Source of the DNA: a virus
Taxonomy: Duplodnaviria; Heunggongvirae; Uroviricota; Caudoviricetes
Length of the DNA stretch: 5,127 nucleotides
Direction: 5' to 3' (one strand)
Virus record (IMG/VR): IMGVR_UViG_2648501318_000002
Span: 1 to 5,127 of that record
The notes under the pieces are model-generated. The model made no database searches, was not told where the DNA came from, and worked only from the letters and a program-made list of their open reading frames with translations. The position numbers and the translations under genes are program-made. Shown here piece by piece: positions 2,409 through 2,596 of this stretch; position 1 is the first letter of the stretch, and each line of letters begins with the position of its first letter.

Positions 2409-2423
2409 TTTGATTACTAAAAG

Positions 2424-2479
2424 ATATGTTGCGGGAGGCTTTGCCTCCCCAACATATAAGTGGCTCCCTCAAGCCACTT
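2424..2479. terminator. Tandem hairpins in the convergent intergenic region between porin and Q
   Basis: 2424..2457: ATATGTTGCGGGAGGC / GCCTCCCCAACATAT long stem with one bulge. 2458..2479: perfect 8-bp stem AAGTGGCT / AGCCACTT with a 6-nt loop. On the minus strand the first hairpin is followed by CTTTTAG, a possible Q-side terminator. Confidence 0.4.
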
Positions 2480-2540
2480 CCTTTAGGAGCACAACCTTGC
2501 TTCTAACTATATAAACCTTCTGTTATATATTACCCTTTAT

Positions 2541-2570
2541 TTTTGGGGGCGTTGCAACGCCCCATTTTTA
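2541..2570 (+). terminator. Rho-independent terminator, plus strand (porin/sRNA 3' end)
   Basis: GGGGCGTTGCAACGCCCC palindrome at 2545..2563, then ATTTTTAATAATTTTT on the plus strand. The minus-strand side is A-rich, so it is mainly unidirectional. Confidence 0.6.
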
Positions 2571-2596
2571 ATAATTTTTAGTAAACAATTGGCATA

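Follow-up and report, generated by a model that had tools for sequence, protein, structure and literature searches.

IpeX at the 3′ end of a DLP12-type prophage porin transcript: a known RNA with predicted complementarity to the ompC and ompF ribosome-binding regions

The window analysed here, a stretch of 5,127 nucleotides held as a Caudoviricetes record in IMG/VR (IMGVR_UViG_2648501318_000002), shows 100% identity to positions 4024130–4029256 (reverse complement) of the E. coli CV839-06 genome (NZ_CP025753.1) and is part of a DLP12-type lambdoid prophage with insertion sequences on its flanks. At one edge, an IS3-family (IS2-like) element whose end occupies 1–198 interrupts the lysozyme gene rrrD (199–537, minus strand), a truncation that renders the prophage lysis cassette defective; the holin gene essD follows (537–752, minus strand). 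An intact open reading frame of 360 aa (1326–2408, plus strand) encodes an NmpC/Lc-type prophage porin, and its convergent neighbour, recognized both as an open reading frame and from the RefSeq annotation of CV839-06, is the Q-type late antiterminator gene quuD (2597–2980, minus strand). Beyond quuD lie ylcG, rusA, ybcO, ninE and ybcN (all minus strand), past which the prophage early region is replaced; a 49-aa frame annotated as hypothetical (4735–4884, plus strand) here adjoins an IS1A that begins at about 4872. We also observe, in the interval that separates essD from the porin promoter region, a leader-type intrinsic terminator (897–876, minus strand), probably the late-leader terminator that is read through by QuuD, which accounts for a weak and spurious Rfam Trp_leader match at 870–992, the sole Rfam match within the window.

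The window porin and PA-2 Lc share 90% identity, and the region upstream of its gene is 98.6% identical to that of K-12 and 93.8% identical to that of PA-2. The gene carries no IS5 insertion, unlike its counterpart in K-12 DLP12, where nmpC is split by IS5. RefSeq calls it a porin in CV839-06; the label that the NCBI pipeline attaches to the prophage porin ("ompC: porin OmpC") is readily confused with that of the chromosomal gene.

The spacer between the porin stop codon (TAA, 2406–2408) and the stop codon of quuD spans positions 2409–2596 and measures 188 nt, the length given in the original prediction, which had also described it as densely structured. Folding bears this out: the plus-strand RNA of 2409–2575 reaches a minimum free energy of −61.8 kcal/mol, whereas 200 dinucleotide shuffles average −32.0 ± 3.6 and none folds as well (z = −8.3); the minus strand of the spacer likewise folds better than expected (z = −6.4). 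Where three strong stem-loops had been proposed, we find five hairpins on the plus strand; the last of them is indeed followed by a T-tract (A-TTTTT-A, 2564–2570), as had been claimed. H1 (2424–2457) is the most stable, at −22.2 kcal/mol on either strand, with 15 bp, one bulged C and a UUU loop; H2 (2458–2479, −10.4 kcal/mol) presents the loop CCCUCA, and H3 (2484–2505, −9.1 kcal/mol) completes the strongly folded part. H4 (2508–2529) is a weak, A/U-only hairpin (−1.3 kcal/mol), whose loop, ACCUUCUG, displays an anti-Shine-Dalgarno sequence. H5 (2546–2563, through 2569 with the U run) combines a 7-bp G/C stem with a UGCA loop (−12.5 kcal/mol), is preceded by a U-rich stretch, and is the sole plus-strand intrinsic terminator that a terminator scan returns within 700–3100. 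The succession of UUUAUUUUU, a G/C hairpin and AUUUUU resembles the layout of an Hfq-binding 3′ module, with a tail of five U only.

The spacer contains no open reading frame of 40 aa or more, and a coding reading of the element, which PA-2 "ORF1" and a "hypothetical protein" of phage Chlobot overlap, was rejected on that ground. No sigma-70-like promoter is predicted in 2300–2600 on the plus strand, and a late promoter PR′ or Q-binding site within the spacer was discarded, there being no promoter-like site on either strand.

The original prediction had taken this region as possibly encoding an IpeX-like RNA, in the positional equivalent of the site downstream of nmpC in DLP12, and had proposed alignment to the published ipeX sequence. 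That sequence occupies positions 574365–574531 of MG1655 (reverse strand, 167 nt; sRNA table, PMC8313858 supplement 1), an interval whose nucleotide 1 is the first letter (T) of the nmpC stop codon. Alignment reveals 160 identities over 167 positions with a single 1-nt indel, and delimits an orthologue of 166 nt at window positions 2406–2571 (plus strand), with the T of the porin stop codon as its first nucleotide and ...CCCCAUUUUUAA as its 3′ end. The gene order (porin, IpeX, convergent quuD) is that of DLP12; because sequence and context agree, the region is best described as IpeX itself, beyond mere positional equivalence, and from the sequence we regard its assignment as the ipeX of a DLP12-type lambdoid prophage as practically certain. 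The element is thus one already known. The DNA downstream of PA-2 lc (J02580.1) is 96.8% identical to the window and, over the element, identical to K-12. The seven differences between K-12 ipeX and the window all fall outside the predicted seed segment described below: two substitutions and the indel lie in the 5′ linker, one change in the H1 loop, one in H3 (A-U to G-U) and two in the terminator loop. In RefSeq, neither the spacer nor its K-12 counterpart carries an RNA gene, and the K-12 record has micF and micC but no ipeX; a search of Rfam 15 with 2409–2596 gave no family match at E ≤ 1, and no Rfam model for IpeX seems to exist.

IpeX was described in 2006 by Castillo-Keller, Vuong and Misra (J Bacteriol 188:576), who reportedly saw OmpC and OmpF go down with OmpA unaffected, noted no complementarity, and placed a "predicted terminator" 247 bp downstream. 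Within the 3′ end of quuD, about 210–235 nt past the porin stop codon, lies an 8-bp hairpin (GATATCC...GGATATC, 2618–2641) that the terminator scan flags as terminator-like on the minus strand; we presume that this may be the structure then meant.

Later literature defines IpeX as a 167-nt RNA of DLP12 that arises from the phage porin promoter, within the porin transcript, and is then processed out of the precursor (PMC12197685); it represses both OmpC and OmpF (PMC5069750). One review has it act without base-pairing to ompC or ompF (PMC3617542), and a review of 2025 states that its regulation relies not on complementarity alone (PMC12197685). IpeX is termed Hfq-independent in PMC8313858, and the literature disagrees on its Hfq dependence; the sRNA table of the same study lists nt 128–142 as the region for ipeX, which we take to be the region found open in vivo by INTERFACE. 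In K-12, ipeX is entered as differentially expressed in RNA-seq tables. With its porin gene intact and an upstream region so close to that of K-12, the window copy represents a configuration in which IpeX should be made.

Of 5426 complete E. coli genomes, about 2500 contain the element, as do 36 phage records; it occurs at a median of one and a maximum of three places per genome, prophage-linked in all cases. Among species-representative genomes, the terminator-anchored element occurs only in E. coli. A REP-prediction paper names ipeX as REP-containing, and a REP or dispersed palindromic element was considered and rejected, the copy number being too low for a dispersed repeat. A porin gene stands upstream of the element at every locus inspected except that of E. 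coli JB2, where an ISKpn26 insertion with an adjacent deletion took the porin gene together with IpeX nt 1–127, leaving beside quuD a remnant that comprises the 3′ part of the seed and the terminator only; being the product of this deletion, the JB2 partial match was rejected as evidence for a module boundary. In strain 19AR1321 the element still lies beside the porin gene and the convergent Q gene is absent. A diverged homologue, about 65% identical, sits behind nmpC of the P1-like phage P7 (NC_050152.1, complement of 25347–25533), where the convergent gene is ssb and not Q. The element hence belongs to the porin rather than to the gene pair.

Variation was assessed in a lambdoid set of 122 copies (45 variants) anchored on the terminator. 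No substitution shared by at least two copies falls within 2513–2539, and the length of the T-run at 2540/2541 is the sole variation at the seed, as compared with 19 polymorphic sites over the other 107 nt; with the T-run indels counted, this depletion is not significant (Fisher p = 0.11). Nor is polymorphism significantly lower in stems than in loops (p = 0.17), and no compensatory change is present within the lambdoid type across the 122 copies, which have diverged too little for such contrasts. Individual polymorphisms in H1 occupy the loop (2440 T/G/A) or the bulge (2432 C/T), or shift the bulge (2449 C/G); that in H3 (2487) converts A-U to G-U, and variation in H5 is confined to the loop. 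Of 5371 E. coli genomes, 5365 have an ompC leader of at least 99% identity, an invariance that makes covariation between this leader and the seed impossible within the species.

CTTTTAG does follow H1 on the minus strand, as the original prediction stated, and the K-12 counterpart of this run is CUUUUUCG; H1 with CUUUUAG may thus terminate Q transcripts, judging by these features. Minus-strand H5 is followed by CAAAAATAAA, without a T-tract, and plus-strand H1 by AAGTGG; a bidirectional intrinsic terminator was accordingly dismissed, and H5 and H1 could each serve one strand only. A spacer acting purely as a transcriptional insulator would use H5 as porin terminator, minus-strand H1 as Q terminator and the remaining 3′ hairpins for stabilization, with no role in trans; the canonical form of H5, the U-rich run after minus-strand H1 in both the window and K-12, good folding on both strands and the want of a RefSeq RNA gene here or in K-12 are all consistent with it. 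Five hairpins and a 27-nt block conserved among 122 copies nevertheless exceed the needs of two terminators, an effect of this sequence in trans on OmpC and OmpF has been published, and the element stays with the porin where Q is gone (19AR1321) or where ssb takes its place (P7), which together make a purely insulating spacer very improbable. The P7 type, moreover, combines the ssb neighbour with the lack of a T-tract for termination at minus-strand H1, so a role in ending Q transcripts is not conserved; protection of the plus-strand RNA is the more probable function of H1–H3.

Since minus-strand H5 has no T-tract, a Q transcript would cross the whole element antisense to IpeX before it reached H1. 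This, with the convergent geometry, is what would commend a main role in cis, in which read-through porin/IpeX or Q transcripts tune Q or IpeX much as PaQ or oop do in lambda. Such a role can be given scarcely any credence: the arrangement is conserved neither in the P7 type (ssb) nor in 19AR1321 (no Q), and the conserved seed would be left unexplained.

We examined complementarity to host porin mRNAs by accessibility-corrected hybridization (ViennaRNA duplexfold in 30-nt windows, with opening energies). The segment AACCUUCUGUUAUAUAUUACCCUUUAUUUU (2514–2543, plus strand; IpeX nt 109–138) is predicted to be antisense to the ompC leader and, more weakly, to that of ompF. Its ompC site, −31 to −7, takes in the Shine-Dalgarno GAGGG and partly coincides with that of MicC. 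The predicted hybrid has an energy of −26.1 kcal/mol, or −16.2 kcal/mol in total once opening costs are included. The predicted duplex comprises 15 contiguous base pairs (one of them G-U) across AUAUAACAGAGGGUU, within which the GAGGG lies, followed by a 5-nt bulge and a further 7–9 bp on AAAUAAAGG. For comparison, the positive control MicC–ompC scores −17.4 at −33 to −15, a site overlapping that of IpeX. None of 100 shuffles reaches the IpeX–ompC score (mean −6.2, sd 1.7), and a hybrid energy of −26 is reached by just 3 of 240,000 unique natural 30-nt windows.

Pairing with ompF is predicted at −15 to +10, with a total of −11.7 kcal/mol that 4 of 100 shuffles equal, and the hybrid energy is unexceptional relative to natural DNA (639 of 240,000 windows reach −18). 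Neither ompA (−4.0 kcal/mol, 80 of 100 shuffles as good) nor the window porin's own leader (−4.6 kcal/mol, 55 of 100 as good) displays complementarity. Cofolding yields the same order (ddG of −18.6 for ompC, −15.4 for ompF, −8.6 for ompA and −6.5 for the own leader, with −26.7 and −22.3 for the controls MicC–ompC and MicF–ompF), and in the predicted IpeX–ompC dimer the weak H4 alone opens. The modelled ranking, in which ompC leads, ompF comes second and ompA and the own leader trail far behind, matches the specificity reportedly given in the 2006 abstract, of which the later papers cited above confirm OmpC and OmpF. Nucleotides 128–142, the region listed for ipeX in PMC8313858, overlap the predicted seed segment.

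Two further features touch on the same leaders. The H2 loop CCCUCA (2466–2471) is complementary to UGAGGG of the ompF Shine-Dalgarno region and to GAGGG of ompC, and may offer a second anti-Shine-Dalgarno contact. Read on the minus strand, 2505–2545 gives CAAAAATAAAGGGTAATATATAACAGAAGGTT, which closely resembles the ompC leader; a read-through Q transcript would carry this mimic, fully antisense to IpeX, and could serve as a decoy or as an anti-IpeX RNA.

The reviews cited above deny pairing (PMC3617542) or sole reliance on complementarity (PMC12197685), and IpeX is reported as Hfq-independent (PMC8313858); on such grounds IpeX might work, as reportedly first described, with no base pairing at all, as a structured RNA that titrates or recruits a protein or acts indirectly on the ompC leader, its complementarity being incidental or a relic. 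Its architecture is unusual for a seed-type sRNA, H1–H3 occupying 82 of 166 nt, and the invariant H2 loop CCCUCA could be a protein or ribosome contact. Set against this are a complementarity to ompC as strong as that of the MicC control, placed on the ribosome-binding site and rare both in shuffles and in natural DNA, and a duplex of 22 bp that could by itself account for Hfq independence. The predicted pattern of pairing also fits the specificity reportedly given in the 2006 abstract. Further weight comes from the P7-type homologue, which re-creates complementarity to both ompC and ompF in another register, as set out below; an IpeX that does not pair thus seems to us unlikely.

The P7-type element is also carried by 116 phage-plasmids of E. 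coli, E. fergusonii, Klebsiella and Salmonella, where it is not annotated as RNA; the P7 porin is 82% identical. (Salmonella "phage" porin matches were rejected on recognition as the chromosomal ompN region, and a scan with the H2 pattern returned mostly chance matches outside the P7 type.) Its order is that of stop codon, H1, H2, H3, an unpaired A/U segment and the terminator. Comparison of the lambdoid and P7 types with RNAalifold reveals changes on both sides of base pairs, two in H2 (AU to GC, AU to UA) and three in H3, and the H2 loop CCCUCA is unchanged in all 10 sequences from the two types. H1 and the terminator have been rebuilt from other sequence in the P7 type, H4 is absent, and an 18-nt insertion precedes the terminator; among the E. 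fergusonii copies, H1 shows a compensatory G-C to A-U change. The compensatory changes amount essentially to one split, lambdoid versus P7 type, and so represent few independent events. The best conserved unpaired block is UGUUAU(A/U)UAUUACC(C/U)UUU.

In P7 the seed is predicted to pair with ompF at −15 to +10 (−16.2, reached by none of 80 shuffles) through a perfect 12-mer, UUAUUUAUUACC, which is also present in MicF, and with ompC at −7 to +13, spanning the AUG (−11.1, again none of 80 shuffles). The ompA leader (−5.9, 34 of 80 shuffles as good) and the own porin leader (−2.4, 79 of 80 as good) show no such fit. That two lineages should each complement both host porins, and do so in different registers, is hard to explain without selection for pairing, although the independent events are few and the evidence for pairing is wholly computational.

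The explanation we put forward begins with transcription of IpeX as the 3′ UTR of the mRNA made from the intact prophage porin gene, ending at H5. A stable RNA of about 167 nt would probably accumulate, shielded by H1–H3 and the terminator, and host OmpC and OmpF synthesis would be lowered while the phage porin is produced, allowing the latter to replace them. The poorly structured segment between H3 and the terminator (2514–2543) would pair, as we infer, with the ompC translation-initiation region (−31 to −7) and more weakly with ompF (−15 to +10), and would keep ribosomes from binding, in the way that MicC and MicF act; the phage porin would escape because its own leader offers no complementarity. 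On the minus strand, H1 with CUUUUAG may stop Q transcripts too. That a porin-3′UTR repressor of OmpC and OmpF is at work in CV839-06 we consider very probable, and the explanation as a whole (ipeX identity, an RNA of the 3′ UTR, lowering of the host porins, antisense pairing) likely; the specific antisense mechanism, in which the modelled seed pairing blocks ribosome binding on ompC and ompF, we favour with some reserve.

As a copy, the window element adds nothing to the catalogue of IpeX; what is new is the predicted mechanism and the unannotated P7-type relatives. The ompC ribosome-binding site would be met by a complement of MicC strength in an RNA that reviews to 2013 and 2025 describe as working without base pairing or not by it alone. 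We incline to regard IpeX as a phage-borne mimic of MicC and MicF residing in phage porin 3′ UTRs, rather than as a regulator of "novel mechanism", with a scaffold common to lambdoid and P1/P7-like lineages, a re-tuned seed and the own leader spared. The family extends to P1-like phage-plasmids, where porin replacement could alter phage exclusion and antibiotic permeability. If the mimic reading is true, every phage porin transcript would bring along its own silencer of host porins, and some of these porins serve other phages as receptors.

The nearest known counterpart is the IpeX of DLP12 and PA-2 itself, which shares with the window the locus, the neighbours (porin upstream, Q convergent) and the terminator, and in K-12 differs by the disruption of the porin gene noted above. 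The logic is also that of MicC (divergent from ompN, repressing ompC) and MicF (divergent from ompC, repressing ompF), in which a porin-linked antisense RNA covers the ribosome-binding site of a rival porin. The 5′ end of MicC and IpeX have GUUAUAU...CCUUUAUU in common, with overlapping sites on ompC (predicted in the case of IpeX), and the 12-mer of MicF recurs in the P7-type seed. Overall homology is lacking, however, and the seed of IpeX is placed internally, immediately 5′ of the terminator, and not at the 5′ end; MicC and MicF are transcribed divergently, whereas IpeX is embedded in a porin mRNA 3′ UTR and bears three extra stable hairpins; and its pairing, unlike theirs, is a prediction that reviews dispute. 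Small RNAs such as CpxQ and SroC derive from mRNA 3′ UTRs and use the terminator of the mRNA. IpeX resembles these in lying between stop codon and mRNA terminator and in being processed from the porin transcript (PMC12197685), and differs in being phage-borne and aimed at host core genes. The 3′ UTR of P7 nmpC, finally, departs from IpeX in that its seed fits ompF and the start codon of ompC, not the ompC Shine-Dalgarno region.
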